DNA from: a bacterium
GTDB taxonomy: Bacteria; UBP18; UBA7526
Assembly: GCA_030615855.1 (NCBI GenBank)
Contig: JAUWYL010000002.1
Location: 68,423 to 132,422, forward strand
DNA length: 64,000 nucleotides
Reading direction: 5' to 3'
The position numbers and the translations under genes are program-made. The notes beneath the pieces were generated by a model. It saw only the letters and a program-made list of their open reading frames with translations. It had not been told where the DNA came from and did not search any database. Positions 8,067 to 29,946 of this stretch are shown piece after piece (within the stretch, counting starts at the first letter, position 1; each line of letters opens with the position of its first letter).

Positions 8067-8098
8067 GGTGAACGGTGAACGGTGAACGGTGAACGGTT
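8067..8098 (-). repeat. (CGGTGAA)4 heptanucleotide tandem repeat inside the B12-rSAM ORF
   Basis: There are four perfect copies. It is in-frame and encodes PFTVHRSPFT. Confidence 0.9.
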
Positions 8099-8208
8099 TT
8101 CTTAAAGCTTGGCAGAGGTTGAGGAGAAGGAAGTCATAGTCGCCACCGGTTAATACATAATCAACTTGAGAATTGTGGAAGGACTCCTCTGGGAGGGCGG
8201 TAACATGG

Positions 8209-8529
8209 TCACCAAATAAGACGGTTTTGAGTTTTGAGTTTATCAATGATCTTCCAGTGCTGCTTAATTACCGGGGTTTTGGTCTCCATAGCAATAATAT
8301 CCGGATTTTCTTTTTTCACTTCGTCTAACCATTTCTCGTAAGTCCATTTCTCTGCTATTCCATCCAGCCAGATAACCTCATAACCCGCATTCTTAAGCAT
8401 AGTCGCTGCCAGAGCAGGAACTACAGGATAGATATAGGTAGGGTTATGGAACCATTGGAATTGCCTATTCTGACTTAATAGAGGACATCCTGGCCCTTTT
8501 AAGGGAGGATAAGATATCATTACTTTCAC
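8209..8529 (-). pseudogene. B12-binding (cobalamin-binding-like) N-terminal domain of the same radical SAM gene
   Basis: 106 aa: MKVMISYPPLKG...AATMLKNAGYEVIWLD, typical of the B12-rSAM N-domain. It stops 38 nt inside the next ORF. The frame break coincides with an (AAACTCA)2 heptamer repeat. Confidence 0.55.
8224..8242 (-). repeat. (GTTTTGA)2+ heptamer repeat at the B12-rSAM frame break
   Basis: The sequence is GGTTTTGAGTTTTGAGTTTA. The stop of the N-terminal ORF and the start of the C-terminal frame both fall within or adjacent to it. Confidence 0.85.
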
Positions 8530-8554
8530 CCCGTTAGACCTCCTCGTATAATAT

Positions 8555-8688
8555 GTTACTACACTTCGTTGTTACTATCGGTTACTACGCTCCGCTGTTA
8601 CTAACGGTTGCAGTAACTGTTAGTAACCCCTGCCTGCCGAAGCCTTGGCGTAGGCAGGCTTAGTAACCCTTTAGTAACTGCTAGTAAC
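8555..8688. promoter_or_regulatory. Phased array of 4 GTTACT and 5 AGTAAC hexamers at 10-16 bp spacing around a central GC-rich hairpin
   Basis: GTTACT occurs at 8555, 8571, 8581 and 8597. AGTAAC occurs at 8622, 8632, 8662, 8673 and 8683. The central stem is CCTGCCTGCC...GGCAGGC. The array lies upstream of the split B12-rSAM gene. Confidence 0.5.
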
Positions 8689-8723
8689 CTTCTTCATATT
8701 TGCGCATTACTTTTAAGCAATTC

Positions 8724-10793
8724 CTATTCCTCTTTCAACCTGCGAGAGAATAGACCTTTCAGGAACAAGACTCCATAAGTGAGGTTAGTAGCAGTGATGC
8801 CAAAGAATACCAAAAGAACCTTTTTGGGATCTCTATTCTTCAAACTGGTTAAAAGAACCATCAATAAATAAAAGAGAATGGTCCCGAAATAAATTTTATA
8901 GAAAAGAGGTTGGATAAGTCCCAATGACCAACCAAAGAATAGGCCTAAAACAAAGAGAGAAGGGATAAAATAAGAGAACCTACGTGAGGTGTGAGGAAAT
9001 CTTTTGGCAAAATATCCTCTGTGTAAAGCATAGCCCCGGACCTGTTTTAAATGGGGAATAAATAACGGACGGCGGTGGTGGTAAATGAGAACCTTAGGAG
9101 CATACATTATCTTCTTTCCTAAATCTCGGACAATATGGAGGCAGAGTTTAGTATCCTCTCCTGGCCAGAATTTAACCCCAAAACCTCCCAGGCTATCCAT
9201 AATCGATTTTCGAATGAGAAGGTTACAAGTAGGAAAGTCATCGACCTCCCTTTCTCGTTTAGGAATATAGCGATAACTTATACTTCCTGTAGCCAGAAGA
9301 GATGAATAAACCAAACCACTTGCTTGTTCTCTGAGACCATCATTGGGAGGGGTTATCCCAGGCCCTCCGATGGCTGCTACCTTCTCATCCTCAAAGTAGG
9401 GCATGGCATTCCCGAGCCAATCTTTTGTGGGAAAGGCATCATCATCCAGAAAGGCTAAGATTTCTCCTCGAGCATGCTTAATTCCAATATCCCTCTTCTC
9501 CGAAGGTCCAATTGCTCCAGTAGGAATGACCTTCACTTTGGAATAGGATAATTGCTCCGTCTTATCTGGTAATACAATAATTTCATAATTCGGATAATCA
9601 AGTCTCTGGCAATAATTGAGACACTCTTGCAGGTTTTGGTTATTGCTTTGAACAGGGATAACGATTGAAACTAAAGGAGTTTTTGTTACTTTTTGCTTTG
9701 CAATTCTCTCTAATATAGAAAGACTTTTCTGAGCAGAGCGATCCCAGTTAAAATCTTGGGAATATTTTAAGGCATTCTGAGATAATTTTTTGTATAGCGC
9801 CTTATCATTTAATAATCTTAAAATATTCTTTGCCAAGAGGGCTGGTCTATTCTGAGAACAGATTAAACCAGTCTGGTTATCTATAGTAGAGTCTCTCAGG
9901 CCGCTAACATTATAGACCACGGTAGGAATACTCATAGCATGGGCCTCAGTAATTGCTAAGCCCCATCCTTCTTTTACCGAAGTCATAACCAATACCCAGG
10001 CACTCCGCAAGAGTCGCAACTTTTCTCTATGCATCTTATATCCGAAGAACCTCACGTCCTGTAAGTTTAGTTTCTTCACCAACCTTTGTAATTTATTCTG
10101 ATAAGCCTTGTCTCCTTCACCCACCAGCCACAATCTGGCCTCAGGCATCTCCTCTTTTACTCGCCTAAAAGCCTTAATAATATGATGGATCCTCTTTGAC
10201 TTTTTGAGTCTCCCCACATAGGCGACAGTGGGAAGAGAACTTCTTTCTGGAACCTGAGAAAGTGGCGAAAAACCAAGGCCTACAGGAACAATATGAACCT
10301 TTTCCCCTTGAAAGCCGAAATGAACCAGGTCCTTTTTAGTACTCTGAGAAATAGTAACTACTGGAATGTTTTTGTAAATTCTTAAATATAGCGGCTCTAA
10401 TAAATAACCTATTATTGCCAGAAGAAGGGGTGATTCATAGAACCAGATTTTTCTACATAGTTGATGGATAGAAACAATTATTTTTTCTTTTACATAGAAG
10501 GGTGTGAAGAAAGGAATGGTATTTATTTCGTCAATGACCAAATCAAATTTTCCTTGGAAACATTTTTTATAGTAGCGAAAGGCCTGCCAGTAAACAGTAT
10601 ACTTATTGCCTGACCTTACAATATTGACCCCATCTATCGTTTCCTTCTTTAGACAATGAGGAAAGGCACTGGTAAACAGGGTAACCTCATGACCTGCTTT
10701 CACCCACCTCTTAGCATTCTCATGAGTTAATACCTCTGCTCCTCCCGCTAAGGGGTTCTTAATGTCTCGCCAGTTAAAAATCAGGATCTTCAT
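8724..10793 (-). CDS. Bifunctional glycosyltransferase: N-terminal GT4 (group 1) domain fused to C-terminal GT2 domain with TM helices
   Basis: 689 aa. The N-terminal half is GT4-like (EGWGLAITEAHAMSIP). The C-terminal half is GT2-like (LVSIVIPVQSNNQ...DDDAFP) and ends in hydrophobic helices. Confidence 0.7.
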   Translation of the reverse strand: MKILIFNWRDIKNPLAGGAEVLTHENAKRWVKAGHEVTLFTSAFPHCLKKETIDGVNIVRSGNKYTVYWQAFRYYKKCFQGKFDLVIDEINTIPFFTPFYVKEKIIVSIHQLCRKIWFYESPLLLAIIGYLLEPLYLRIYKNIPVVTISQSTKKDLVHFGFQGEKVHIVPVGLGFSPLSQVPERSSLPTVAYVGRLKKSKRIHHIIKAFRRVKEEMPEARLWLVGEGDKAYQNKLQRLVKKLNLQDVRFFGYKMHREKLRLLRSAWVLVMTSVKEGWGLAITEAHAMSIPTVVYNVSGLRDSTIDNQTGLICSQNRPALLAKNILRLLNDKALYKKLSQNALKYSQDFNWDRSAQKSLSILERIAKQKVTKTPLVSIVIPVQSNNQNLQECLNYCQRLDYPNYEIIVLPDKTEQLSYSKVKVIPTGAIGPSEKRDIGIKHARGEILAFLDDDAFPTKDWLGNAMPYFEDEKVAAIGGPGITPPNDGLREQASGLVYSSLLATGSISYRYIPKREREVDDFPTCNLLIRKSIMDSLGGFGVKFWPGEDTKLCLHIVRDLGKKIMYAPKVLIYHHRRPLFIPHLKQVRGYALHRGYFAKRFPHTSRRFSYFIPSLFVLGLFFGWSLGLIQPLFYKIYFGTILFYLLMVLLTSLKNRDPKKVLLVFFGITATNLTYGVLFLKGLFSRRLKEE

Positions 10794-10798
10794 TTAGA

Positions 10799-12772
10799 TC
10801 ACCGTCCACCGCTTACTTTCTCCCCTTCTCCGTTTCCCCGATTCACCCTTTCACTCATCCTTCGCCCCTCGTCCTCCCCTACTCTCACCTCAGGTTCAAT
10901 GGGTGGCGCCATTACTTCATAAACCTCTGCCTCTGGGAATGATTTAATCAGCCGCAACCCGGGTTGCTTTTTAATATCAGGTATCTCTCCAATAATGGCA
11001 ACTTCGTTACTTGTGGCGTATTTTTCAGGATGGAAGATGACATACTTTGCTCCCAGATGTTTCAGGATACCTGGAGTCTTAGGGTCTAAAATATCAACTA
11101 TTTCCTTTCTCACTTTATCAGCATGGGTGCCAGGCAAGGCGCCATTGACTAATCTCTTTTGATGGATCCTCTGCCAAAATAGATATTCAACATCATTCTC
11201 CATAGGATATTCAGCAACAATAAAATCGCCCTCTTGTTTGGAGAGCCATTCATAGACTGGAGGAGGATCAACAGCATTAATCATGGGGGCAGGAAAGGTA
11301 GGAGCAAATTCGATACAGATGAGCAAAACAATGAGAGCCACAAGGATTTCTCGCTTTTGGGGAGTCTTTATCTTCTGTAAAATACTGGCTAATCCTATAC
11401 CCGCTAAGACACTTACTGAGAGCATGACCAGAATGCCAAAGCGAGCATAACAGCGAAACATAGGAGCTATTTTATACATAAAGTAAGAAGGAAAGAATAT
11501 TCGAAAAGGACCAATATCTGTCCAGGGGGCATGGGAAAAGATCAGAGCCATAATCCCAGCGAAGAGGAAGAAACTCACTCCTTTCTGGGTTCTGGTTGAC
11601 CAGTTTGCCAGTTGGCCCGTTAGCCTGTTATCTGTATTTTGTTTTTGTGTACCCTTATTCACTTGTTTACTTATCAACTTGTTAACTAATTTATTCTTCC
11701 TCCTCCACTCTCGTATAGCAATAATTGAGAGAATAATTCCTACCCAACCGAGATAGAGGGTTTGCTCTACCGGGTGATAAACCTTGATAAAATTCCGGGT
11801 AAAACCTCCTATAAAGGGATTATCGCCTGAGGGTATGAGATAATGGAAGAGATGAGCAGAATAGGTAAAGAGGCCGCTAAAAGAGCGCTCATATCTCAGA
11901 GAAGCAAGAGCCGTTGGCTTGGGACTGAATACATTTTTCAAGATAGGATAAATAGCAGGCAGAATAATCGCCAGAGCAACCACCGTTGCCACTAACACCA
12001 CTCTCATTGTCTTAAGCGGTGATCGGTGATCAGTAATCAGTGATCGGTCTTTCTTTTCACCGGATAACCGGATAACCGGATAACCGGATAACCTCCTATT
12101 TCTCCACCCATACCACACCCGCCACAGGATAAATACTCCAGTAAAAATGGTCACAAAGTATCCATAATAATAATTGGAAAGAAAAACTAGGGAAAAAGCC
12201 AGAGCAGCGAGAATAGCACTCCCATAGGTTCTTCTTTCATCCAGATTAAAGAGAGCCAAAAAGAAAAGAGGTATCCATTGAATGTTGGCCAGGGTCAGAT
12301 GTTGATAAGAATGGGTAAAGTGAAAGGGGCAAAAGGCATAAATTATTCCCGCAATCAAACTAGCTAACTTGTTTTTGGTGAAATAGTAAACTAAATAGTA
12401 GGCTATAATAGCCGAAAGAAAGAAACTTGGCAGAACAGAAAAATTATAAGCGAAGACTTCACCAAATTTTAAAGATACAGGAAGTAGCAAGCTTTCCCAG
12501 AGAAAATGTCTGGTAGCAGCATAAGCGAAATTGACCCCATAAGGATAGGCGATCAGGTGACAAGTCTCCGGCGAAAGACGATGAAGATGGGCATATTTTA
12601 GCCACCAGAGATGCCAGACCGCTCCCAAAGCATCACCTCCCGAGCCATAAAGATGACTATTCATTTTGAAAATAGTTGGATAAGTGATTATTGAACTCAA
12701 TAAAATAAAAAATAGCAAGATTAAGATTTTATTCTGAATAGGTTTAAATTTAGAAAGAAATGTCTTTACCAT
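10799..12772 (-). CDS. Polytopic membrane protein, putative GT-C-fold glycosyltransferase/polymerase (YfhO/ArnT-like), with a C-terminal soluble domain
   Basis: 657 aa with more than 10 predicted TM helices and an Asp in the first extracytoplasmic loop (GSGGDA). One loop is encoded by in-frame STRs: (CGGATAAC)4 and (GTGATCG)-like repeats. Confidence 0.4.
   Translation of the reverse strand: MVKTFLSKFKPIQNKILILLFFILLSSIITYPTIFKMNSHLYGSGGDALGAVWHLWWLKYAHLHRLSPETCHLIAYPYGVNFAYAATRHFLWESLLLPVSLKFGEVFAYNFSVLPSFFLSAIIAYYLVYYFTKNKLASLIAGIIYAFCPFHFTHSYQHLTLANIQWIPLFFLALFNLDERRTYGSAILAALAFSLVFLSNYYYGYFVTIFTGVFILWRVWYGWRNRRLSGYPVIRLSGEKKDRSLITDHRSPLKTMRVVLVATVVALAIILPAIYPILKNVFSPKPTALASLRYERSFSGLFTYSAHLFHYLIPSGDNPFIGGFTRNFIKVYHPVEQTLYLGWVGIILSIIAIREWRRKNKLVNKLISKQVNKGTQKQNTDNRLTGQLANWSTRTQKGVSFFLFAGIMALIFSHAPWTDIGPFRIFFPSYFMYKIAPMFRCYARFGILVMLSVSVLAGIGLASILQKIKTPQKREILVALIVLLICIEFAPTFPAPMINAVDPPPVYEWLSKQEGDFIVAEYPMENDVEYLFWQRIHQKRLVNGALPGTHADKVRKEIVDILDPKTPGILKHLGAKYVIFHPEKYATSNEVAIIGEIPDIKKQPGLRLIKSFPEAEVYEVMAPPIEPEVRVGEDEGRRMSERVNRGNGEGEKVSGGR
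12018..12093 (-). repeat. (GGTGATC)-like x4 and (CGGATAAC)4 tandem repeats inside the GT-C-like membrane protein ORF
   Basis: Both are in-frame and encode ..RLSGYPVIRLSG.. and ..DRSLITDHRSP.. Confidence 0.85.
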
Positions 12773-12809
12773 GCGATTTTCCTTTTTGGAAAGAAGGGTT
12801 TGTCTTACC

Positions 12810-13973
12810 TTAAATAGGGGGGAGTGCCTTTTGGATTATTTGTATAAGATTAGCAGCATGCTTTTTCCAAGAATATTTCTGTGCCTTTCTCCAGGCGGAA
12901 TAGCCCATCCTTCTTGCCATCCTCTCATCTGCCACCAGTTTATCTATATATTCAGTATATGCTCTCAAATCTCCCTCTTGAGGAAAAAAACCATCTTCCC
13001 CATGAACAAACAAATCAGTAACACCAGACCCTCTGGGAATAATGGATGGGCAACCATGAGCAGCCGCCTCAAGCCCGGCCATACCAAAAGCTTCAAAAAT
13101 AGGATGGACTAGAACTCGGGCTTTCAAATATAGCTTATTTAGTTTCTCTTCACTAAGGGCTCCAGTTATCTCAACTCTTCCTTCTAATTTCCGCTCCTTT
13201 ATGCCAGTGCTAAAGGAGTGAAGTAGAGGTTGATCCCAGGAGCCAGCCATTATTAACTTTACCCTTTTGGCTCTAAGATTCTCCACTATATTTAACAAGA
13301 ATTCTGGTCGTTTTCCAGCATTCCATTTCGTGGATGATAAAATATAATCACCCCGTGTTTTGGGAATCTCAGTTAGAGAATAACAGCCAGGATGTAAAAC
13401 TTTAATCTTCTTGTTACCTAAAGTAGCTAATCTCTTCTGATGAACAGTAGAACATGTTATAGTGGCTAATGCATTCTTAACGATTAAAGCATCAAGGCCT
13501 CGGGCAAGGGGGAGTAAAAAAGGGGAAAGGAAACGAAGGAAAGAGGATGCATAAGCTCGGGGAAGAACATAAGAAATAGGGTCATAGATATAGGCAATAT
13601 AAGGAATATTTCTTTTTTTCCACAATCGGTAACTGGTAAAACAGGTATAAGTAGCATGAGTAATAACTACATCAAAATCTTCTCGCAGAATAATCTTTGG
13701 TACCAGATAGGGGCTAATAATGTGGAAAGTAGAGAAAAAACGAAAAAAGGGAAATTTTAAAGGATGGCGAAAAATGAAGGGGAATCTTTCGGATAAAAAT
13801 TTGATGGGTATCTTTCTTAATAGGTCATCATATTGGTAACCCTGGACTTTCTTTTTCATTAGCACCATTAATTCTACTTGCTGTCCCATTTCTCTTAAGT
13901 GTTTCACTTCTTCAAAGGCATATCTTGCCACACCCCCTACTAAGATCTGATCTAAAAGGATTCCAATTTTCAT
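12810..13973 (-). CDS. Family 4 (group 1) glycosyltransferase
   Basis: 387 aa with the GT-B C-terminal motif EAFGMAGLEAAAHGCPSI. Confidence 0.75.
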   Translation of the reverse strand: MKIGILLDQILVGGVARYAFEEVKHLREMGQQVELMVLMKKKVQGYQYDDLLRKIPIKFLSERFPFIFRHPLKFPFFRFFSTFHIISPYLVPKIILREDFDVVITHATYTCFTSYRLWKKRNIPYIAYIYDPISYVLPRAYASSFLRFLSPFLLPLARGLDALIVKNALATITCSTVHQKRLATLGNKKIKVLHPGCYSLTEIPKTRGDYILSSTKWNAGKRPEFLLNIVENLRAKRVKLIMAGSWDQPLLHSFSTGIKERKLEGRVEITGALSEEKLNKLYLKARVLVHPIFEAFGMAGLEAAAHGCPSIIPRGSGVTDLFVHGEDGFFPQEGDLRAYTEYIDKLVADERMARRMGYSAWRKAQKYSWKKHAANLIQIIQKALPPI

Positions 13974-17454: not shown

Positions 17455-17484
17455 TGCTTTTGCTTCCTTTATAAAGGGACTAGG

Positions 17485-17580
17485 AGGGATTAGAAAGGAG
17501 GAACAGGGATTAGTAGGGATATTCGCGATAATTCGCGTTCTTTTATTTCTTGTTCCGTGCTATTCGCGTTTATTCGCGTC
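17485..17580. repeat. Intergenic word-repeat block (GGGATTAG x2; ATTCGCG x4)
   Basis: Directly visible in the sequence. Confidence 0.8.
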
Positions 17581-17731
17581 TATCGGCTTCCGATTCCAGC
17601 ATCACCGGTATCCCATCTCGAATAGGATACCTTCTTCCACATTTGGTGCAAACAATCTTATCCTTTTCTAATTTAACATCTGCTTTGCACACTGGACAAG
17701 CCAGGATCTCTAACAATTCTTTATCAATCAT
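17570..17731 (-). CDS. Trm112/YcaR-like small zinc-ribbon protein (UPF0434 family)
   Basis: This 53-aa ORF is not in the supplied track: MIDKELLEILACPVCKADVKLEKDKIVCTKCGRRYPIRDGIPVMLESEADRRE. It has CPxC...CxxC and the canonical Trm112p-like IPVML motif. A strong SD (GGAGGTGAGGAG) sits 5 nt upstream. Confidence 0.55.
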   Translation of the reverse strand: MIDKELLEILACPVCKADVKLEKDKIVCTKCGRRYPIRDGIPVMLESEADRRE

Positions 17732-17792
17732 GCTCCTCACCTCCATACTTATTAGTTGACAAGTTGATTAGTTAATAAGTTAACAAGAAAAC

Positions 17793-17905: not shown

Positions 17906-17930
17906 ACGTAACCTATAACTTGTATCCTTG

Positions 17931-18896: not shown

Positions 18897-18965
18897 CTCA
18901 AGTTGACAAGTTGATAAGTTGATAAGTTGATAAGTAAAAAGTAAGAAGTATGAAGTATGAAGTAA
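18897..18965. repeat. Octamer/heptamer STR block: (AAGTTGAC/AAGTTGAT)4, (GAAGTAT)3, (ATTTTGC)2
   Basis: The sequence is caagttgacaagttgataagttgataagttgataagt...gaagtatgaagtatgaagtaa...attttgcattttgcatt. The GTTGACAAGTTGAT word also occurs at 17753. Confidence 0.85.
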
Positions 18966-19012: not shown

Positions 19013-19954
19013 TTATCTTTCCCACTTTCTCACCGGCTCACTTTCAGATGTTTTTAGATACTCCTTCAATGCTTCCTGCCAAGGTCTTAATGGTTCACCT
19101 ACTGTTTTAATATAGCGATTATTATCCAGAACAGAAAACTTTGGCCTTTTTGCTGGACGATTCAATTCTCCAGAAGAAATGGGTTTCAGCGATGGGGGAT
19201 GTGCGATGTGCAATGTGTGAATGATTTCCTGGGCAAAATCACACCAGGAACAGGAACCACTATTGGAAATGTGGTAGATGCCAAATGTATCTGTATGATG
19301 TGTGATGTGTGATGTGTGATGAAGTAATTTACCTATTGCGTGAGCGAGATCTTTGGTATAGGTGGGGGAGCTAATCTGGTCATTGACTACTTTTAATTCC
19401 TTTTTCTCTTTGGCTAATTTTAATATGGTGTTAACAAAATTTTTACCGTGCTTTCCAAAAAGCCCAGAGGTTCGAATGATGAAGTATCTATCTAAAAGCA
19501 AAGAAATATGTTTCTCTCCCTCTAATTTGCTTTTTCCATAGACGCTCAAAGGGTTAGGTTCATCGCTCTCAAGATAGGGCTCTTTCTTTTCTCCATCAAA
19601 GACGAAGTCCGTGCTGATATAAGCCATAACTGCCTTACACTCTTTGCAAGCGAGGGCTACATTCTGAGTACCAGTGCCATTTATTCTATAGACCAAATCC
19701 TCATTTTCCTCACAGCCATCGACATCCGTATAGGCGGCAGCATGAATCACAATCTCCGGCTTCGCTTCACAAATGTTTTTAATTATTTCTTCTTTACTTG
19801 TAATATCTGACTTGATATACTCCATTGATCCCAGATCCCAGATCCTAGATCCTGGATCTTTTACATCTATTCCGAACAGCTCATGCTCTTTTGATAGGGC
19901 CTCTACCAGATCCCTGCCCAGCATCCCACAAGCACCGGTAATTAAAATACGCAT
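19013..19954 (-). CDS. rmlD: dTDP-4-dehydrorhamnose reductase
   Basis: 313 aa. It has the RmlD pattern (short SDR; HAAAYTDVD; YGKSKLEGE). Two in-frame heptamer STRs, (CATCACA)4 and (GATCCCA)4, encode HHTSHITHH and [11 protein letters not shown]. Confidence 0.75.
19293..19323 (-). repeat. (GTGTGAT)4 heptamer STR inside rmlD
   Basis: The sequence is gtatgatgtgtgatgtgtgatgtgtgat, in-frame. Confidence 0.9.
19827..19858 (-). repeat. (GATCCCA)4-like heptamer STR inside rmlD
   Basis: The sequence is gatcccagatcccagatcctagatcctggatc, in-frame. Confidence 0.9.
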
Positions 19955-19960
19955 CCTATC

Positions 19961-20968: not shown

Positions 20969-21089
20969 CTTCCTTTAATCAAATTTAGAAATATAGAGAT
21001 ATTGTCTACCTTTAAAAAGGGTTGGGGCGGGGTGAAGCCACATCCCCCAGTTACCAATATTTTCTTTCTATCTGCGTAATCCGTTGTAC

Positions 21090-21578: not shown

Positions 21579-21589
21579 TCGTCGGAGTA

Positions 21590-21680
21590 GGAAAGTACAA
21601 AAGTATAAGAGTAAATAAGTAAAGAGATGATGGACTACTTACTTTCCTACTTTCCTACTTTTATACTTTCTTACTCTACA
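21590..21680. repeat. Intergenic inverted word-repeat block between rmlC and rmlA (GTAGGAAAGTA ... TACTTTCCTAC x2)
   Basis: Long imperfect palindrome built from 7-8-mers. Confidence 0.75.
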
Positions 21681-22740
21681 ATACTTCCAGTCTGCTTCTG
21701 TCCCCTAAAGTAAATCTATAGCTCTGCGGTTTGGCCTTGGTTTTGGAGATAGAGACTTCTTTTCCAATGAGGCTCTCGTTTATCCTTCCTGAGATGCTAT
21801 CGATACTACTCTCCTCCAAGATGATGCTATGTTCGATTTCACTATTTCTTATTGTCGTTCCCCAGTAGATGGAGGTAAAGGGACCGATGTAGGAGTTGAT
21901 TATCCTACTTCTTTTACCGATGATCGCTGGACCACGGATGACGCTATTGATTATTCGGGCTCCTTTTTCAACGACTACTCTTCCTGTGATCCTGGAATCC
22001 CCATCTACCTTACCTTCGATCTTGGTCGACATGGATTCCAGGATAAGACGATTGGCTTCTAAGACATCCTCCACCTTACCCGTATCCTTCCACCATCCCT
22101 GAATAATGTGAGAACAGACCTTATACTCTTTATCAATTAAATACTGAATGGCATCTGTTATTTCATACTCCTTCCTCCAGGAAGGTCTGATATTATTTAC
22201 TGCCTCAAAGATGTTTTTATCGAACATATAGACCCCTACTAAGGCCAGGTCGCTCTTTGGTTTTTTCGGCTTCTCAGTCAGTCTGACTATCTTCCCTTTC
22301 TCCAATTCCGCCACCCCAAATCTCTCAGGCTCCCTTACCCTGGAGAGCAGGATTAAAGCATTCAGTTTCTTACCCTTAAACTCCCGCACCAAAGAGGTAA
22401 TCCCTTCCTTAATCAGATTGTCCCCTAAATACATCACAAAGGGTTCATCCCTAAGATATCTTTGGGATATCTTCACTGCATGAGCCAGTCCCAGGGGTGC
22501 CTCCTGCTCAATGTAAGTCACTTTCAGACCCCACTTCTTTCCCGTACCAACCGCTTCTTTTATCTCCTCCTTTGTCTCTCCCACAACAATACCTATATCC
22601 TTTATCCTGGCATCAGCAATGGCCTCCAATCCATAGAAGAGGATGGGTTTATTGGCAATAGGAATGAGCTGTTTTGCTCCGGTATGAGTGATGGGCCGCA
22701 GCCTCGTTCCCCTTCCTCCACTCAATACTAACGCTTTCAT
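21676..22740 (-). CDS. rmlA: Glucose-1-phosphate thymidylyltransferase, long form with C-terminal left-handed beta-helix
   Basis: It carries the GGxGTRL motif (LSGGRGTRLRP) and a hexapeptide-repeat C-terminus. The start is probably MKALVL at 22740. Confidence 0.8.
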   Translation of the reverse strand: MKALVLSGGRGTRLRPITHTGAKQLIPIANKPILFYGLEAIADARIKDIGIVVGETKEEIKEAVGTGKKWGLKVTYIEQEAPLGLAHAVKISQRYLRDEPFVMYLGDNLIKEGITSLVREFKGKKLNALILLSRVREPERFGVAELEKGKIVRLTEKPKKPKSDLALVGVYMFDKNIFEAVNNIRPSWRKEYEITDAIQYLIDKEYKVCSHIIQGWWKDTGKVEDVLEANRLILESMSTKIEGKVDGDSRITGRVVVEKGARIINSVIRGPAIIGKRSRIINSYIGPFTSIYWGTTIRNSEIEHSIILEESSIDSISGRINESLIGKEVSISKTKAKPQSYRFTLGDRSRLEVL

Positions 22741-22753
22741 ATCTCCCCCCGCA

Positions 22754-22801
22754 AACACAGATGGACACAGATAGGTTACAGATTCACACAGATCACAGAT
22801 T
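22754..22801. repeat. (CACAGAT)n degenerate heptamer STR
   Basis: The sequence is acacagatggacacagataggttacagattcacacagatcacagatttg. The same word also occurs at 41300-41340. Confidence 0.8.
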
Positions 22802-22889
22802 TGATATTAATGGACTATATCGCCCAAGATCAAAAATCCAGCCCCTACTAACCCCTTCTAATTCTTCCTAATCCCTACTAACCCTTGTT

Positions 22890-23843: not shown

Positions 23844-23845
23844 TC

Positions 23846-25135
23846 CTACCTCCCTATTCCTTGGTATTTGAAACCCATTTTCTTCATTTCTTCTGGCTCA
23901 TAGATATTCCTTCCATCAATAATGACTGGTATTTTGAGTAATCTTTTAATCTTCTTTAAATCCAATTCCTTAAACTCATTCCACTCTGTCAGGATGACCA
24001 AACAATCGCTCTTTTTAGCCACCTCATAGGCATCCTGGCAGAACTCGACTCTCTTTAAGATCTGTTTTGCCTTTTCCATGGCCGCAGGATCAAAGGCCTT
24101 TATTCTCGCTCCCTCTTTCTGTAGGGCTTTAATAATATCTAAGGAAGGAGCATATCTTAAATCATCAGTATTGGGCTTAAAGGAAAGCCCCAGGATGCCT
24201 ATGGTCTTATGGTTCAGGTTCCAAAGGGTCTTCTCTATCTTCTTTACTATAAGCCTCTTCTGGGCCTCGTTTATTCTCTCCACTTCCTTTAAAAGGTTGA
24301 AATTATATCCTAACTTCTGGGCAATATGTCGGAAAGCAGCCAAGTCCTTTGGGAAGCAGAATCCTCCAAAGCCTATCCCAGCGTTCAGGAAGGCCCTTCC
24401 GATCCTCTTATCATAGCCCATGCCCTCTGCCACCTGTAATACATCTGCTCCGGTCTTCTCACAGAGATTGGCCACAGCATTGATGAAGGATATCTTGGTA
24501 GCTAAGAAGGCATTAGAGGCATGCTTTATTATCTCAGCACTCTTTATATCAGTAATTATAATAGGTGCTTTTAATGGCTTATATAATTCAGTCATGATCT
24601 TTTCTGCCCTTTTGCTCTCTATTCCTAAGACGATCCGGTCGGGATTCATGAAGTCATGGATTGCCGAGCCCTCCTTTAAGAACTCTGGGTTCGAAACCAC
24701 ATCAAAGGGAACTTTCTTCCTGTTATTGATCTTAATGGTATGCTTCACCCACTCCCCGGTCTCTACGGGAACGGTACTCTTCTCCACAATGACCTTGTAA
24801 CTTTTCATATTCTTTGCGATCTCTTTGGAGACCGCCTCCACATAGGATAAATCCGCCTCCCCGCCCTTCTTGGGTGGAGTACCAACAGCGATGAAGATGA
24901 CCTTTGATTTTCTCACCCCCTCCTCTATACTGGTAGTAAAGGATAGTCTCTTCTCTTTAACATTTCTTTTGACCAGTTCCTCCAGTCCTGGTTCATAGAT
25001 GGGCATAATATTCTTCTTTAAGAGTCTAATCTTCTCCTCATCATTATCGACGCAGATGACCTTATTTCCTAAATCAGCAAAACAGGTTCCAGTAACCAAG
25101 CCAACATATCCCGAACCAATAACTGCAATATTCAT
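23846..25135 (-). CDS. ugd: UDP-glucose 6-dehydrogenase
   Basis: It has the NAD-binding N-terminus MNIAVIGSGYVG and a catalytic Cys region (GFGGFCFPKD). An RBS (GGAGGGG) precedes the ATG at 25135. Confidence 0.85.
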   Translation of the reverse strand: MNIAVIGSGYVGLVTGTCFADLGNKVICVDNDEEKIRLLKKNIMPIYEPGLEELVKRNVKEKRLSFTTSIEEGVRKSKVIFIAVGTPPKKGGEADLSYVEAVSKEIAKNMKSYKVIVEKSTVPVETGEWVKHTIKINNRKKVPFDVVSNPEFLKEGSAIHDFMNPDRIVLGIESKRAEKIMTELYKPLKAPIIITDIKSAEIIKHASNAFLATKISFINAVANLCEKTGADVLQVAEGMGYDKRIGRAFLNAGIGFGGFCFPKDLAAFRHIAQKLGYNFNLLKEVERINEAQKRLIVKKIEKTLWNLNHKTIGILGLSFKPNTDDLRYAPSLDIIKALQKEGARIKAFDPAAMEKAKQILKRVEFCQDAYEVAKKSDCLVILTEWNEFKELDLKKIKRLLKIPVIIDGRNIYEPEEMKKMGFKYQGIGR

Positions 25136-25293
25136 CCCGCCCCTCCTTCTATGGTGCAATTTGCTATTTTAAGCAGTATATGATTATTCTTACTATATCG
25201 ATTTCGCAACGAATTACAAAGAGGGGCGGGATACATTTTGTATATCTCCATTTAAACTATCAATATAGCACATATAAGCCCTTTTGTCAAATT

Positions 25294-27423
25294 TTAGAAT
25301 ACTCCCTTCTCCTTGCCCTTCTCAATCTCCTTATCGAGTTGGTGCTGATGTCCTACCTTCAGTCCCGGGAACTCCTTTATGTTGAACTGGAGCCAGACCT
25401 TATGTTCCTCTAACTCAAGATAGGCCCTCTCCTTATAACGATAAGAAAAGGTTATCTCCCAGCAGTGGAGATCCCGCCAGAGCTCTGCCCCTACATCCCT
25501 CAATTCAAAGTCGCGGTCTAAAGGATCCTGCCGAAACCTATTCGATACCGTCAATCTCCACTTCTTCTTCCTATCCAACCAGAACCTCGCTCCACTGAAT
25601 AGGTGTTGGACATCATTAGAAATGTTATCAGCATCAGAGCCCTGGGTAAATCGGTGGCCAAAGTAGAAAGAGGTATATCTATTGGGGACGATTTCAAACC
25701 TATTGCCCAGGTTGGTCATCTTATTCACCCCACCGATGCTATATCCTGCATCAAGATCATACTCCAGGCATTTGGCAGGCCAGAGGCTTAGATCAAGTCT
25801 TATCTTATCCCAATGCTTTTCTTCTTTCTTAAGGTCATAGAGGGTAGAGAGTTTTACTTTTAACCTCTTGGGGGGAAGTTGTAGCCTGAAAGCACCCTCT
25901 ACCTGGCTTACTCCCGCCCCGGGATCAAAGGAGACATCGGTAGGCTCATGGACATTCTGAGAGTACTTGTAGACTATATCATTCTGAAGATACCTAGTAA
26001 TCCTGGTATTCAGCCTCCCAATCCCCTCATAGGTACCCCAATAGATATCGTCCTTATTCAATTTACTTGTCTGGTCATAGAAGTGTTGGGTATAGCCCCC
26101 CGTAAGAGAAGCCCCCATCCTGGGTCCCAGTTTGATAGGAGTAGTGAGATGCTGGGCAAGGTTTGCATTCCAACCTGTGAACCCCTGAGTCTTAGTATAG
26201 AGGCTCGTTGCCTGAACCTTTCCCTTATAGTAGAGAGGAAGACGACCAATGTTTATATAGCTACTCCCCAGGGTCAGTTCGGGAAGCTTCTGTTCTTGCT
26301 TACCAAACTTCTCGGTGCTGGGGTCCCAGGACTCCTTGAGGTGTCCCACACCCCTCATATAATAGCGGGGCTTGGTCCTGGTTACTGCCCCATAATAGTT
26401 AAGTTCCCTGGTCACCCTCTCCCTTGCCCCTGGCTCGTACTCTCTATTGAACTCGTCAACGCTCACATAGTCAACATAGGCTAAAGCACTTACATCCTTT
26501 GGTAGAGAGTGAGAATAGCGTAACTGGGCCTTATACCTCTCAGTGATTGCTCCTGGCTCCCGATAGTATTCACCATCATCGAACTTCTTTATCTCATGCT
26601 CCTTAATGTGGTAGCCATATAGAGTCCCGCTTCCCACATCCTTTCCTTTCCGCGAGATGGTATATTTATACCCTAATCCCTTCCCCCAGCCTGCTCTTCC
26701 TAAGTAGTCGCCATATAATGTTCCCCGGGAGCGATAGACCTTCCTCCAGGCCTGGGGGCGGAAATAGAAGTTATATCTGCTCTCCACCGTCCAGCCTCTT
26801 TTATTATCCTCACCAGGAACGATCACCCATCCATAGGGAACCCCAGTAAGGGAGCGAGTATAGAAAGGGAGATATAAGAGAGGCGCCTTTCCTAAGAAAA
26901 AGACCGCATTGTAAAGCCATATCCTATTCTCCAGACGTACATAGGCCGGATGGGCCCAGAAATGATAGTGAGGGGAAGGGTGCTCACAGGTAGTGAAGAT
27001 GCCTCTCTTGACTTTATATTTATCCTCTTCTAACTTGATCATCTCCTTTCCTTTGAAGTACCAGGGATCGGCATAGGTCGATCCCGGAAAACCGGCCACC
27101 TTCTTTATCTCCCCCTTCTTGGTCTTTGTACTATAGGTAATGGAGGTCCCTCTTATCTCCCTTATCCCATCCCAGAGGGAGGCATGCCCCTCGGCAACCG
27201 TCTCACCAGTTTTTAGGTTCATCTTTACCAGATCCGCCTCTAAGACAGTGTACTTCTGGGTCATCTTTACATTTCCAATGGCAACGATAATCCCCTCTTC
27301 TCGTAGGTATTCTATATAATCTGCCTCACAGTAGATGGGCTCCTCTTCTTCCTGAGCCATGAGAGAAGAGGCAAAGAGAATCAAAATAACGATAACAGAT
27401 AGGATAATTGCTTTAAATCTCAT
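25294..27423 (-). CDS. lptD: LPS-assembly outer membrane protein LptD (OstA family)
   Basis: 709 aa with a signal peptide, an N-terminal OstA/LptA-like beta-jellyroll and a large C-terminal beta-barrel that ends in an aromatic residue (..KGVF). Confidence 0.7.
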   Translation of the reverse strand: MRFKAIILSVIVILILFASSLMAQEEEEPIYCEADYIEYLREEGIIVAIGNVKMTQKYTVLEADLVKMNLKTGETVAEGHASLWDGIREIRGTSITYSTKTKKGEIKKVAGFPGSTYADPWYFKGKEMIKLEEDKYKVKRGIFTTCEHPSPHYHFWAHPAYVRLENRIWLYNAVFFLGKAPLLYLPFYTRSLTGVPYGWVIVPGEDNKRGWTVESRYNFYFRPQAWRKVYRSRGTLYGDYLGRAGWGKGLGYKYTISRKGKDVGSGTLYGYHIKEHEIKKFDDGEYYREPGAITERYKAQLRYSHSLPKDVSALAYVDYVSVDEFNREYEPGARERVTRELNYYGAVTRTKPRYYMRGVGHLKESWDPSTEKFGKQEQKLPELTLGSSYINIGRLPLYYKGKVQATSLYTKTQGFTGWNANLAQHLTTPIKLGPRMGASLTGGYTQHFYDQTSKLNKDDIYWGTYEGIGRLNTRITRYLQNDIVYKYSQNVHEPTDVSFDPGAGVSQVEGAFRLQLPPKRLKVKLSTLYDLKKEEKHWDKIRLDLSLWPAKCLEYDLDAGYSIGGVNKMTNLGNRFEIVPNRYTSFYFGHRFTQGSDADNISNDVQHLFSGARFWLDRKKKWRLTVSNRFRQDPLDRDFELRDVGAELWRDLHCWEITFSYRYKERAYLELEEHKVWLQFNIKEFPGLKVGHQHQLDKEIEKGKEKGVF

Positions 27424-27533
27424 ATTTTCACTTTAATCAGGCCACAAGTCTCATGTTTAGGAAGCGGTGAATCGGTGAGCCGGTGAATCGGAGACTTTCT
27501 CCGTTTCTCCCCTTCTCCGTTTCAACATTTTTA

Positions 27534-27596
27534 CAGCCTGTAGCCTGGAGCCTGGAGCCTGTAGCCTGAAACCTGCAGCCTGAAGCCTGAAGCCTG
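27534..27596. repeat. (NAGCCTG)9 heptamer STR between the HTH-transaldolase gene and lptD
   Basis: The sequence is cagcctg tagcctg gagcctg gagcctg tagcctg aaacctg cagcctg aagcctg aagcctg. A second STR, (ATCGGTGA)-like, lies at 27463-27490. Confidence 0.9.
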
Positions 27597-27600
27597 CATC

Positions 27601-28443
27601 TTATTTTGAGATCTTCTTCCAATCCGCCAAGAATTTTTCTACTCCTTCATCTGTTAAAGGATGCCTGATCAGTTTCTCAAGGACACTGAAGGGAATGGTA
27701 ACTCCTCCTGCTCCAGATAAAGCCGCTTTCTCCACCTGAAGAGGACTCCTTATGCTCGCTACAATCACCTCTGTCTTGAAGCCATAGTTTTTATAAACCT
27801 GAACAATGTCCTTCACCATATCCATTCCCTCTTGGCCAATGTCATCCAATCTTCCCGCAAAAGGAAAGCAATAGGTAGCTCCTGCTTTGGCTGCCAAAAG
27901 TGCCTGAGAGGAAGAGAAGACTAAAGTTACCCCAGTCTTTATTCCCCCTTTACTTAGGATCTTTACCGCTTTTAGGCCCTCTGGGGTAATGGGGATTTTG
28001 ACTATTATATTCTTATAGAGCTTAGCTAATTCCTCAGCCTCAGAGACAATCTTTCCTGCCTCAGTAGCTACTGGCTCCACACTAATTGGTCCATCTATTA
28101 TATTAGTAATCTCTTTGGTGAGAGCCTCAAGGTTTTTTCCCTCCTTTACTATGGATGAAGGGTTGGTCGTCACCCCATCGATAAGCCCCCAATCTGTGGC
28201 TTTCTTTATCTCTTCTATATTGGCGGTATCAAGGAATATCTTCATTCCTTCCGCTTCCCTCTTCTTCTCTTTAATCGCTCCCCCATGGGTCCTCCTTAAG
28301 AGACCTTTTCCCTCCATCTCTTCCAGATCTCTCCTTATGGTAGAGGAAGAGACCTTCAACGATTTGCTCAACTCTTCCACGCTAACTCTTCCCTGTTCTC
28401 TCAAAACCTTTAGTATCTCCTCCTGCCTTTGCTCATTAAACAT
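27601..28443 (-). CDS. Fusion protein: DeoR-type HTH domain + complete transaldolase/fructose-6-phosphate aldolase (TalC/Fsa family)
   Basis: The N-terminal 57 aa is EEILKVLREQGRVSVEELSKSLKVSSSTIRRDLEEMEGKGLL, a DeoR HTH. After a KEKKREAEG linker comes MKIFLDTANIEE...TTNP...FPFAGRLDD, a full-length TalC-like TIM barrel. Confidence 0.7.
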   Translation of the reverse strand: MFNEQRQEEILKVLREQGRVSVEELSKSLKVSSSTIRRDLEEMEGKGLLRRTHGGAIKEKKREAEGMKIFLDTANIEEIKKATDWGLIDGVTTNPSSIVKEGKNLEALTKEITNIIDGPISVEPVATEAGKIVSEAEELAKLYKNIIVKIPITPEGLKAVKILSKGGIKTGVTLVFSSSQALLAAKAGATYCFPFAGRLDDIGQEGMDMVKDIVQVYKNYGFKTEVIVASIRSPLQVEKAALSGAGGVTIPFSVLEKLIRHPLTDEGVEKFLADWKKISK

Positions 28444-28614
28444 CTTGAACCTCCTGCTTAATCACGCTCATTTGGTCAAATTTCTAATAACTCATATAAT
28501 ATCACATATATATTCTGTAGTCAAATTAAAACAAAAGCCCCCAAAAGAATGGGAGCTAAGATCTTTAAGGGTGAGGCAATTTATGTTCGATCGAATACAA
28601 ATTGCCTCAAATCT

Positions 28615-29946
28615 TCAGCCTTCCAGATAGGTTTTGGCTTCACCTATCGTATAGAGTGAGCCAGTAATAAGAACTATATCCCTCCTCTTTGCACAAGAGA
28701 GAGCATATTCAATCGCTTGAGAGACTTTTTCTTTAATTACTATAGAACCTAAATATTTCTTTGCTATTTCGGCTATCTCTTCTGGTTCTGCTGCCCGAGG
28801 GGTCTGAGGTCTGGTAATGATTATTCTGGAGGCTAAGGGTGCTAACTGGGCTACAATGCCCTTAATATCTTTATCTCTTAGAATACCCAGAAGGAGAATT
28901 AACCGCTTATAATTAAAAGAGTCTCTAATGGCTTCCTTGAGGGCCTTTACTCCTGCTACATTGTGAGCACCATCTAAAATTACCGTGAACCGTTTACCGT
29001 TTACTGTGAACCGTTTAACTTCCAATCTCCCGGGCCAGATGGTTTTGGCTAAACCTTTTCTTATCTCTTCTTTGCTAATTTTCACCTTTGTTCCTAAAAG
29101 TTCTACTACTTCTATAGCACAAGCAGCATTCAGCAATTGATGCTTGCCCAGAAGAGAAATCTTCAGACTCTCATATCTACTATAAATTCCTTGGACATTA
29201 AAGGTTTGCCCGACCCACCGCAGGTGGGTGCCCGCCAGTTTACCAGTTGACCAGTCATTTGGACTTTGGACAAGAATTTTTCTATCTACTCTATATAGTT
29301 TTGCTTGTTTCTTCCTGCAGGTTTGCTCTATCACAACCAATACTTCCTTCTTATTCTCTGCAGTAATGACTGGCACTTTCTTCTTAATGATCCCACATTT
29401 CTCATAAGCGATTCTCTTAAGGCTTCTTCCCAGATGCTCTGTATGCTCAAAATCAACATTAGTAATCACTGAGACCAAAGGTTTGGTGACATTGGTGGCA
29501 TCCAACCTCCCTCCCATCCCCACCTCTAAGATAGCAAAATCTACCCTTCGTTCTGCAAAATACTGCAGGGCTATAGCCGTAGTTATTTCAAAAAAAGTAG
29601 GCTGAAAACCGTAAACGGTAAACGGTAAACGGTAAACCTCTTTGACTAATTTAGTTAGTTCTTCCTTGGAGATTAATCCCTCGCTTGTCCTTATTCTTTC
29701 TCTGAAGTCAATTAGGTGGGGGGAGGTATAGAGCCCCACCTTATAGCCCGCTCCTTTTAAGATATAAAAAAGGAAGGCTCCCACCGAGCCTTTGCCATTC
29801 GTTCCTCCAATATGGATGACCTTTAATCTTTCTTGCGGATTCCCCAGTAATCTAAGAAGCCTTCTTATATTCTTTAATCCTAACCTTATCCCAAACCTCT
29901 GGAAACTCTCAAGGTATTTAAGGGTCTCTTGGTAGGTCATGATCAA
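28615..29946 (-). CDS. folC: Bifunctional folylpolyglutamate synthase/dihydrofolate synthase
   Basis: It has a Mur-ligase-type P-loop (HIGGTNGKGS) and a FolC domain order. Two in-frame GTAAACG-type STRs encode RLPFTVYGF and KRFTVNGKRFTV. Confidence 0.8.
   Translation of the reverse strand: MIMTYQETLKYLESFQRFGIRLGLKNIRRLLRLLGNPQERLKVIHIGGTNGKGSVGAFLFYILKGAGYKVGLYTSPHLIDFRERIRTSEGLISKEELTKLVKEVYRLPFTVYGFQPTFFEITTAIALQYFAERRVDFAILEVGMGGRLDATNVTKPLVSVITNVDFEHTEHLGRSLKRIAYEKCGIIKKKVPVITAENKKEVLVVIEQTCRKKQAKLYRVDRKILVQSPNDWSTGKLAGTHLRWVGQTFNVQGIYSRYESLKISLLGKHQLLNAACAIEVVELLGTKVKISKEEIRKGLAKTIWPGRLEVKRFTVNGKRFTVILDGAHNVAGVKALKEAIRDSFNYKRLILLLGILRDKDIKGIVAQLAPLASRIIITRPQTPRAAEPEEIAEIAKKYLGSIVIKEKVSQAIEYALSCAKRRDIVLITGSLYTIGEAKTYLEG
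28982..29018 (-). repeat. GTGAACCGTTTACC-type tandem repeat inside folC
   Basis: It is in-frame and encodes KRFTVNGKRFTV. Confidence 0.85.
29608..29638 (-). repeat. (CGGTAAA)4 heptamer STR inside folC
   Basis: The sequence is aaccgtaaacggtaaacggtaaacggtaaacc. It is in-frame and encodes RLPFTVYGF. Confidence 0.9.

Follow-up and report, generated by a model that had tools for sequence, protein, structure and literature searches.

Tandem repeats with a 7-nt unit have long been known from a few bacterial groups and, to our knowledge, neither their origin nor the reason for a unit of this length has been established. [quoted passage not shown] Long simple sequence repeats (SSRs) of prokaryotes were the subject of an earlier study, said to be that of Mrazek and co-workers in 2007. 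As far as that study is relayed in later work, heptanucleotides are the commonest class of long SSR in prokaryotes (PMC4679880; also PMC4692102), and a preference of heptamers for four units has been described in the Xanthomonas and Nostoc GGGNATC repeats (PMC4692102). Here we describe short arrays of 7- and 8-nt units in a 64-kb stretch of a bacterial contig (JAUWYL010000002.1; hereafter the window), where they occur in most spacers of a long gene string and also lie, in frame, within conserved enzymes such as RmlD and FolC. We consider it probable, though by no means assured, that they are STRR-like or long-SSR-like microsatellites with long units, unusually active in this uncultivated lineage, born locally, homogenised within each array, exchanged by recombination and filtered by the reading frame.

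Arrays in spacers and in enzyme loops

Tandem Repeats Finder (TRF) listed 73 rows for the window, chiefly with periods of 7, 8 and 10 nt. After merging, and counting arrays of at least 2.8 copies, there were 10 period-7 arrays against 0.15 per local-composition shuffle and 14 period-8 arrays against 0.10, so that the arrays, typically of ~4-5 copies, are 60-140 times commoner than in shuffled DNA. Exact arrays of at least three copies (three of period 7 and two of period 8) appeared in none of 30 dinucleotide shuffles. A reading of the window from its sequence alone (the sequence-only reading) had named many of these arrays, and TRF placed all of them at the same position or within a few bases of it; a ninefold NAGCCTG, for example, came out as AGCCTGA x8.9 at 27535-27596. 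CACAGAT, ATTCGCG and GATTAG, which it had listed as 7-nt repeats, turned out to be of period 10 or loosely spaced. It had also seen arrays in almost every spacer. This holds between 6 and 34 kb, where all genes are on the minus strand and arrays are present in 12 of the 14 spacers of more than 25 nt, in many cases as two or three different ones abutting, but not between 34 and 64 kb, a part of higher GC that encodes Lon, trigger factor, UvrA, AcrB, a tRNA cluster and the transfer-messenger RNA (tmRNA) and has sparse arrays of only 2-3 copies. GC content rises from ~0.38-0.42 (1-30 kb) to ~0.45-0.52 (30-64 kb), parallel to the fall in array density; over positions 1-64000 the cumulative GC skew drops almost monotonically, and 49 of the 54 long open reading frames (ORFs) are on the minus strand.

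The window was compared with syntenic contigs of its relatives, namely L002, L082 and L085 (from one JGI metagenome), L083 and L084 (GCA_030619985.1), L086 (GCA_004196315.1) and L221-L223 (L221 being a Logan contig from SRR30965930). All of them carry period-7/8 arrays, at ~4-7 per 10 kb. At a stricter threshold, 145 kb of clade DNA held 18.6 period-7 and 9.6 period-8 arrays per 100 kb, and 1.17 Mb of unrelated genome loci held 1.8 and 0.43, respectively, a difference of ~10-20-fold. The clade DNA is nearly devoid of periods 5, 6, 9 and 11, and period 7 is the commonest period even in the unrelated sample, in agreement with the rank of heptanucleotides among prokaryotic long SSRs (PMC4679880; PMC4692102). 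The phenomenon is lineage-wide and not specific to one contig. The sequence-only reading had allowed that the arrays might be confined to this contig through an assembly artefact or a chimera. Nothing speaks for this, or for an amplification artefact, beyond the fact that the contig was assembled from a metagenome. In an independent assembly (L001, a Logan contig of SRR14872660), 2,997 nt match the window at 100% identity, five arrays included, so the arrays are not an artefact of one assembler; at least seven further projects and samples (NCBI, JGI and Logan) yielded contigs with arrays at matching places in the genes, and the coding arrays preserve their reading frames. The artefact explanation is effectively refuted. 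The exact RmlD protein of the window is on record on only two contigs, a 144-kb NCBI contig and the Logan contig of SRR14872660, and an exact look-up of its FolC protein found no record. By RmlD, the closest species-representative genome is "bacterium UBP18_UBA7526" of an unclassified candidate phylum (75% identity), and the next matches, at ~50% identity, are Omnitrophota-like and other metagenome-assembled genomes (MAGs).

Within genes, the arrays lie in RmlD (Pfam RmlD_sub_bind, E=7e-97), in FolC (Pfam Mur_ligase_M and Mur_ligase_C), in a B12-binding radical-SAM gene (Pfam Radical_SAM) and in a membrane protein that had been called GT-C-like (Pfam YfhO). They are more numerous than previously noted: RmlD and FolC each have a third array, and the membrane protein has four (Table 1). 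Close RmlD homologues (66-78% identity, 288-340 residues) align with three hypervariable patches, in which nearly every sequence has its own peptide with a 7-residue periodicity (LIQDLGSRIQNL, ITDHRSPITD, THNSSFITHN, SDIRCQMSDIK, RVTSYELRV, SPKSKVQSPKS); at the nucleotide level, site 1 of RmlD is occupied by other units in L082, L083, L086 and L223. Sites 2 and 3 of L002 were left out of the comparison, as they contain ambiguous X codons (most likely a masked N stretch) at which the ORF breaks. FolC homologues (427-481 residues) have at least four such patches with differing periodic peptides. In these alignments of orthologues the array segments are the most variable parts and not conserved sequence. 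The solved RmlD structure 1vl0 shows gaps of 15, 8 and 2 residues exactly at sites 1, 2 and 3, and the FolC structure 1o5z has a 12-residue gap at site B and one of 4 residues at site C. In an AlphaFold2 (AF2) model of the window RmlD (mean predicted local distance difference test score 87.5) the arrays fall in loops 31-44, 216-224 and 248-254, and the internal blocks of lowest confidence, 31-40 and 211-220, fall at sites 1 and 2. The gaps (1vl0, and partly 1o5z) and the low-confidence loops bear out the earlier proposal that in-frame arrays occupy loops of conserved enzymes. Its term "insertions" does not suit all sites: at FolC site A and RmlD site 3 the array replaces a loop of similar length.

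In the clade, 10 of the 38 period-7 arrays are exactly 32 nt long (four units and 4 nt), and nearly all 10 are coding. This is the modal length of coding period-7 arrays, and others have 35 nt (five units); lengths of spacer arrays spread over 28-68 nt. The 32 nt can be divided into a seed of 11 nt (one unit and 4 nt of microhomology) and 21 nt, the least that can be gained in frame, and the perfect octamer array of the YfhO-like gene (GGTTATCC x4.4, 35 nt) likewise into 11 and 24 nt. Read in three frames, a 7-nt unit gives a peptide with a period of seven residues (e.g., PFTVHRS-PFT) and an 8-nt unit one of eight (e.g., LSGYPVIR-LSG); the arrays at 12017-12093 encode LSGYPVIRLSG...DRSLITDHRSPL. 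Both the modal coding length and the one gene caught out of frame, at 2.6 copies, show that selection for the reading frame acts on coding arrays.

Relatives also have longer in-frame inserts of 9-25 residues in array loops (P0127, P0134, P0140, P0135, P0005, P0017, P0007 and P0004). The insert HPVRGKSPQATASDLYRRTSNG is common to three FolC proteins, and A/GL.PRSGAG is found in two RmlD proteins at different sites; short palindromes are present in the L085 DNA around FolC site B (10001-11380). These inserts suggest that proteins of the lineage also accept, in frame, small mobile repeats of a second class, like the Rickettsia palindromic elements (RPEs).

Birth, unit turnover and exchange of arrays

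The gene caught out of frame encodes the B12-binding radical-SAM protein, and its break lies exactly within GATAAA-CTCAAAA-CTCAAAA-CCG (splitting sequence GATAAACTCAAAACTCAAAACCG). L082, L083 and L086 have intact orthologues of 508-517 aa. When one CTCAAAA copy was removed in silico, an uninterrupted protein of 493 aa resulted, colinear with the intact orthologues; adding two copies (4.6 in total, +14 nt) also restored the frame, with a 7-residue insertion. In L082 and L083 the split site is occupied by (ACCGATC)x4.6, which encodes RPITDHRSPIT, and the loop of the second array of this gene (8066-8097) is hypervariable in L082, L083 and L086. The CTCAAAA array is a plain local tandem duplication and shows the birth of an array, and intermediate copy numbers inactivate genes, as they do here. 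A direct repeat of 26 nt (x2.1, 8555-8627) lies in the spacer upstream of this gene and overlaps a period-10 array; its period is longer than that of the remaining arrays.

An array at which a gene is interrupted brings to mind the contingency loci of Haemophilus and Neisseria, and the arrays could be selected ON/OFF switches of surface-polysaccharide genes that move in one-unit steps. Array density is indeed highest in the glycan-biosynthesis cluster, the radical-SAM gene of this cluster is OFF exactly at a heptamer repeat where one step restores it, and every change in the copy number of a 7-nt unit shifts the frame. On the other hand, arrays are also found in folC and in the spacers of trp, leu and ribosomal-protein genes, many are decayed and would slip poorly, and the coding arrays sit at in-frame lengths, with all coding arrays of the window in frame (ON) except the CTCAAAA array of the radical-SAM gene. 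The copy number, moreover, stays fixed between strains and species while the unit changes, which is the opposite of a length switch. We regard selected switching as improbable for the arrays in general, though it may operate in genes of the glycan cluster.

The behaviour of orthologous arrays is best seen at two sites. FolC site C is 35 nt long in three genomes, with the units AAACGGT/TCACGGT in the window, ACACGGT in L085 and TCACCGA in L084. RmlD site 3 is 35 nt long in four genomes and is built of units of a T[T/C]A[C/A]G[A/G]G family: L083 has four TTAAGGG and one TTAAAGG; L221 has TTACGAG, three TCACGAG and TTGCGAG; L222 is alike but has two TTGCGAG; and L223 has four TTACGAG followed by TTAAGGG, a hybrid whose last unit is that of L083. 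At FolC site A, L085 has the array of the window with its G variant distributed differently, and other relatives have CAGGCTT, AAGCCTC-like or ATCACCG-like arrays. Orthologous arrays at these sites have a constant length, and their units have changed in all copies together; hybrid arrays and edge units that lag behind are the classical sign of unit variants sweeping an array by slippage or out-of-register conversion. One change in length was seen, the +7-nt duplication of the radical-SAM gene; comparisons of strains and species showed conserved length and altered units.

Two near-identical strains give an estimate of the rate. The stretches of 460 and 1,185 nt that flank RmlD site 3 have 2 mismatches each between L221 and L083 (4 in 1,645 nt), and the array with its left border has 17 in 45 nt; the L221 allele, border GAAATC included, equals that of L222. 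Elsewhere L221 departs from L083 over a tract of ~700 nt at 81% identity (137 mismatches in 710 aligned nt), which brings a window-type RmlD N-terminus together with the site-1 array of the window. Array alleles thus seem to have been exchanged between strains, at least once by a patch of no more than ~50 nt, or else the turnover of the arrays exceeds that of the flanks more than 100-fold. Set beside L083 8877-9773 and window 19013-19954, the whole RmlD gene of L221 (703-1608) reads as a recombination mosaic of clade members.

The 77 clade arrays reduce to 54 canonical units, several of which occur at 2-6 loci each. ACCGATC is found in the YfhO-like gene of the window, RmlD site 2, radical-SAM site 1 and FolC site C; AACCCTT in RmlD site 3, FolC site B and radical-SAM site 2; AAGCCTG in the window spacer at 27535-27596 and, as CAGGCTT, in the site-A array of L084 FolC; ATCCAGG in RmlD, at site 1 in the lineage of the window and at site 2 in L222; and AAAGTCC at RmlD site 1 of L223 and FolC site B. 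The sets of words are not private to each spacer, as the sequence-only reading had them, since the same units recur at non-orthologous sites and across genomes. By our own estimate this recurrence is far above chance, given ~1,170 canonical heptamers; in coding DNA, the need for stop-free and loop-friendly units narrows the usable set. Two stronger statements were examined and dropped. A vocabulary specific to each genome is not claimed, as a hand count gave 10 same-unit pairs within genomes against ~6 expected from clade-wide sharing. Nor can ACCGATC be called a universally favoured word: in viral contigs it had 6 matches and two composition-matched scrambles had 6 and 2, so that no global preference can be claimed. 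(ACCGATC)x3.5 matches more than 120 metagenome contigs with GC of 0.36-0.75, and arbitrary heptamer arrays are common in very large data sets. The ACCGATC-bearing metagenome contigs L087-L166, which span that range of GC, contain ~86 further period-7 arrays in 430 kb, and their ACCGATC arrays reach 146 nt; heptamer-rich genomes seem to be widespread well beyond this lineage.

What mainly speaks for some copying between loci is the shared vocabulary, and on its account we keep as chief rival a model of copy-and-paste spreading, though an unlikely one. It holds that pre-formed arrays of ~30-35 nt, or their units, are copied from locus to locus and that a limited genome vocabulary is written into any tolerant site in one, possibly in-frame, step; stalled forks that switch template, ectopic short-patch gene conversion or a dedicated activity might bring this about. 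Identical units at unrelated sites, coding and non-coding, would be expected from it: L086 uses CAGATAT at RmlD sites 1 and 3 and in one spacer, and the genome of L083 and L084 uses ACCGATC in three genes and AACCCTT in two. So would unrelated units at one site in related genomes (GTTTACC, CAGGCTT and ATCACCG-like at FolC site A) and the radical-SAM array of L082, a 30-nt insertion whose unit is absent from the array-less allele; a hairpin module with a conserved tail (next section) stands at two loci on contigs of one metagenome. However, the flanks of same-unit arrays have no common sequence, terminal repeats or target duplications, at least one array (that of the radical-SAM gene) is a plain local duplication, and same-unit arrays of one genome share no variant pattern. 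Several of the "different" units at one site are, furthermore, joined by one- or two-base steps and hybrid arrays, and the coincidences are inflated by stop avoidance and the demand for loop-friendly peptides in coding DNA.

We think local birth followed by homogenisation and exchange more probable. Arrays would arise when 7 or 8 local bases that lie between short stretches of microhomology are duplicated in tandem, as the CTCAAAA array shows, and would then grow to ~4-5 units, or 30-40 nt, a length taken from the arrays themselves with a cause that we infer. Unit variants would sweep through the array at fixed length, as the orthologous sites suggest, presumably by slippage and/or out-of-register gene conversion, and array alleles would pass between strains by short-patch homologous recombination, of which L221 offers a mosaic. 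Selection would purge arrays that break the frame or the fold while spacers accumulate them freely, in keeping with the pattern seen here; genic arrays would on that account persist only in indel-tolerant surface loops at in-frame lengths (typically 32 nt, made of ~1.6 + 3 units, or 35 nt, made of five). We read the arrays mostly as a mutational by-product rather than as devices, and some spacer arrays, e.g., inverted pairs that fold into long hairpins, may have been co-opted. The sequence-only reading had proposed active spreading followed by purifying selection: frame selection agrees with it, local birth, homogenisation within arrays and allele exchange between strains are what the data show, and spreading from locus to locus is a suggestion drawn from the shared vocabulary.

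Several points weigh against this explanation. The same units recur at non-orthologous sites more often than independent local births predict. One-unit slippage in the essential folC would pass through lethal out-of-frame states, so that three-unit steps or conversion would be required. Slippage in itself does not account for the strong preference for units of 7-8 nt and, in spacers too, for ~4-5 copies. Finally, the radical-SAM frameshift is known from one assembly, the second assembly not covering that part. A bolder proposal, which we offer tentatively as a possible but doubtful one, is that a process of this lineage rewrites heptamer or octamer cassettes by copying units between spacers and surface loops of essential enzymes, these patches of 30-35 nt thereby evolving ~100-fold faster than the DNA around them and yet remaining in frame. 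It could consist of out-of-register or ectopic templated conversion, possibly by a dedicated or unusual replication-repair activity.

Spacer arrays, hairpin modules and neighbouring genes

Some spacer arrays come as inverted pairs. In the rmlA-rmlC spacer, an octamer array and an inverted partner form an imperfect hairpin of ~40 bp (minimum free energy -36.7 kcal/mol, z -4.4 in the window), and the tail ACTCCGACGA follows. The same module with this tail lies in the rmlA-rmlC spacer of L082 (3855-3960, z -3.3) and at a different locus, the L21-L27 spacer of L085 (15020-15140, z -4.1). This ~100-nt module may be a small dispersed element, resembling repetitive extragenic palindromes (REPs) or transposable elements of the miniature inverted-repeat kind (MITEs), or a regulatory RNA structure. 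The arms of a second inverted pair in the window (33597-33621 and 33626-33650) are 80% complementary.

Such hairpins would fit an explanation in which spacer arrays are functional nucleic-acid elements (terminators, processing sites or phased binding sites of single-strand-binding protein) and the coding copies are spill-over. The conservation of the rmlA-rmlC hairpin in two genomes and at another locus (z -3.3 to -4.4), the second inverted pair and the presence of arrays in nearly all spacers of a co-directional gene string all speak for it. Most spacer arrays, however, have no inverted partner, their units vary from spacer to spacer and from species to species, and the coding arrays are hypervariable with no conserved word. 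A hairpin function for spacer arrays in general was likewise discarded, as only inverted pairs fold and the spacer downstream of rmlD has a z of +0.2, like its shuffles. Function as the general basis of the arrays is, on this evidence, very improbable.

The two arrays between rmlD and the UDP-sugar decarboxylase-like gene (Table 1; the first, 18900-18935, reads AAGTTGAT x4.5 on the plus strand) are considered intergenic because the true start of the downstream gene is MRILITGG, the Pfam match beginning at residue 49-52 of the long ORF. The AACTTRTY array near the Trm112-like gene has an orthologous array (x8.5) upstream of Trm112 in L083, and the GAAAGTGR family of the trpB-trpA spacer is also found at L002 42-79 and L082 6449-6472.

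Table 1. Arrays and array-bearing genes of the window (positions of the 64-kb stretch; units in sense orientation unless marked)
Coordinates	Strand	Location	Unit, copies and parts	Remarks
7041..8529	(-)	B12-binding radical-SAM gene		Two ORFs, 8209..8529 and 7041..8246, owing to a +7 frameshift
8066..8097	(-)	Radical-SAM gene	TTCACCG x4.6 (plus strand CGGTGAA)	In frame; 32 nt, 100% perfect; PFTVHRSPFT
8224..8241	(-)	Radical-SAM gene, split point	CTCAAAA x2.6	Nascent, out of frame
11600..11687	(-)	YfhO-like gene	Period 8, two arrays (11600-11630, 11661-11687)	In frame, decayed
12017..12048	(-)	YfhO-like gene	ACCGATC type x4.6 (CGGTGAT)	In frame
12059..12093	(-)	YfhO-like gene	GGTTATCC x4.4 (plus strand ACCGGATA)	In frame, perfect
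17474..17787	(-)	Flanks of small Trm112-like gene	Period-10 words (17474-17520, 17560-17583)
17754-17787	(-)	Near Trm112-like gene	AACTTRTY type, period 8, x4.2
18900..18965	(-)	rmlD/UDP-sugar decarboxylase-like spacer	ACTTATCA x4.5; TTACTTC type x4.9	Two abutting arrays
19189..19217	(-)	RmlD site 3	CACATYG x4.1	In frame, decayed
19292..19321	(-)	RmlD site 2	CATCACA x4.3 (plus strand TGTGTGA)	In frame; HHTSHITHH
19827..19858	(-)	RmlD site 1	AGGATCT/GGGATCT, ~4 copies (GATCCCA x3.7-4.6)	In frame
20981..21002	(-)	Spacer	Period 8, x2.8
21579..21690	(-)	rmlA-rmlC spacer	(AAAGTARG)n 21640-21675; inverted (YTTACTTT)n 21592-21623; tail ACTCCGACGA	Hairpin module
22755..22884	(-)	Spacer	Period 10, two arrays (22755-22793, 22842-22884)
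27461..27596	(-)	Spacer	CAGGCTN x8.9 (27535-27596); GAAACGGA type x3.5 (27496-27523); CCGATTCA type x3.9 (27461-27491)	Three consecutive arrays
28980..29017	(-)	FolC site C	5 x 7 nt AAACGGT/TCACGGT (TTACCGT x5.4)	In frame; KRFTVNGKRFT
29235..29255	(-)	FolC site B	AACTGGNN x2.6, period 8	In frame; adjoins GTCCAAA x2
29606..29637	(-)	FolC site A	GTTTACC x4.6 (plus strand AAACGGT)	In frame; VYRLPFTVYGF
30819..30859	(-)	trpB-trpA spacer	GAAAGTGR x5.1
32117..32224	(-)	Spacer upstream of trpB	Period 8, x2.8 and x5.9
33591..33656	(-)	Spacer	Period 14 x2.4; period 7 x2.3	Mutually inverted short arrays, hairpin-like
46622..49654	(-)	Spacers, housekeeping half	46622-46642; 47453-47491 (including ACCGATC x2.3)	Sparse, 2-3 copies
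49603-49654	(-)	Spacer	Including AAAGTAGG x2.8	Sparse

The position 3′ of rmlD looks like a variable islet inside the glycan cluster. L082 has there (6508-8312) a 23S-rRNA-IVP/bAvd-like gene and a PDDEXK gene, L083 (9799-10606) and L221 (1634-2441) have a nucleotidyltransferase/HEPN pair, and the window is without small inserts. Next to the three consecutive arrays at 27461-27596, the window encodes on its minus strand (27601-28443) a 280-residue fusion of a DeoR-type helix-turn-helix (HTH) domain with a transaldolase/fructose-6-phosphate aldolase domain, which is kept in L083 (581-1423) and L085 (11520-12362). In the housekeeping half, six tRNA genes (Leu, Lys, Arg, His, Arg, Pro) are clustered at 40617-42867, and the tmRNA (49117-49468, minus strand), with the predicted tag peptide ANEQLAYVC, is of the standard one-piece type. 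No array of three or more copies was found inside the tmRNA and tRNA genes of the window.

Comparison with known repeat systems

In the literature searched we found no account of non-triplet microsatellites lying in frame at orthologous enzyme loops across a lineage, nor of concerted unit turnover. The lineage offers a tractable natural experiment, since array positions in conserved enzymes can be aligned and births, unit sweeps, decay and allele exchange can be read against the protein scaffold. Non-triplet repeats can persist in essential genes at frame-preserving lengths, and between near-identical strains the change in an array can be roughly 150-fold that in its flanks. In MAGs of the group, annotation is affected by the arrays through spurious "insertions", genes that are split and proteins of variable length. 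If cassette rewriting were true, it would be a genome-wide, non-transposon mechanism of repeat spreading and of protein-loop remodelling in bacteria.

The arrays resemble the cyanobacterial STRR sequences in their tandem 7-nt units, in forming short arrays over many, mostly intergenic, loci and, as far as a title can tell, in being tolerated in the variable region of a functional gene. The host here is, in contrast, not cyanobacterial, as the sequence-only reading had supposed, and belongs to a candidate phylum; its nearest genome is UBP18_UBA7526, followed by Omnitrophota-like MAGs, and its tmRNA is one-piece. In the DNA compared (64 kb of this genome and the clade contigs) there seem to be many unit types (54 among 77 arrays, several of them at 2-6 loci) instead of a few families used genome-wide. 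Octamers come close to heptamers in frequency, and arrays stand in frame in protein-coding enzymes. With the long SSRs of prokaryotes, as far as the relayed parts of that survey describe them, they share over-long tracts with units of 5-11 nt, period 7 as the commonest, a mostly non-coding location and slippage as the proposed cause. The survey, in the same parts, placed in coding DNA units divisible by three, whereas here non-triplet units are coding at frame-preserving copy numbers, and the density here is about tenfold above our background sample.

Other systems built on heptamers use single words. The GGGNATC repeats likewise prefer about four units, cluster near the ends of ORFs and are rarer than expected within coding DNA (PMC4692102), but they are a single G-rich quadruplex motif to which the preference is ascribed (PMC4692102); here the units are diverse and mostly not G-rich, arrays still have 4-5 units, and a preference for about four units arises without G-quadruplex motifs. 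The TAACTGA repeats of marine Beggiatoaceae, some cyanobacteria and Bacteroidetes form arrays of 2-6 copies in spacers, often just 5′ of start codons (PMC4679880), and some of our octamers have an AACT core (TCAACTTA, CTAACTGG). The Beggiatoaceae repeats are, however, one specific word (PMC4679880), and the window was found to have no TAACTGA arrays, its single 2-mismatch match being at chance level.

Like the coding arrays, the RPEs of metabolic genes are repetitive DNA that unrelated enzymes tolerate in frame where the fold permits it, but they are palindromic mobile elements of ~150 bp in defined families (PMC10969869) and the arrays here are tandem repeats of 30-35 nt without termini. Neither MITE-like nor RPE-like traits were seen in the unrelated flanks of same-unit arrays, the octamer hairpin module with its conserved tail being a possible exception. 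In contingency loci (PMC12721329), as here, a non-triplet change of copy number shifts the frame, and the radical-SAM gene is OFF at such a repeat. Those loci mostly have units of 1-5 nt in long tracts whose length varies between strains, whereas in the lineage of the window the length is conserved, the unit varies, and housekeeping genes are included.

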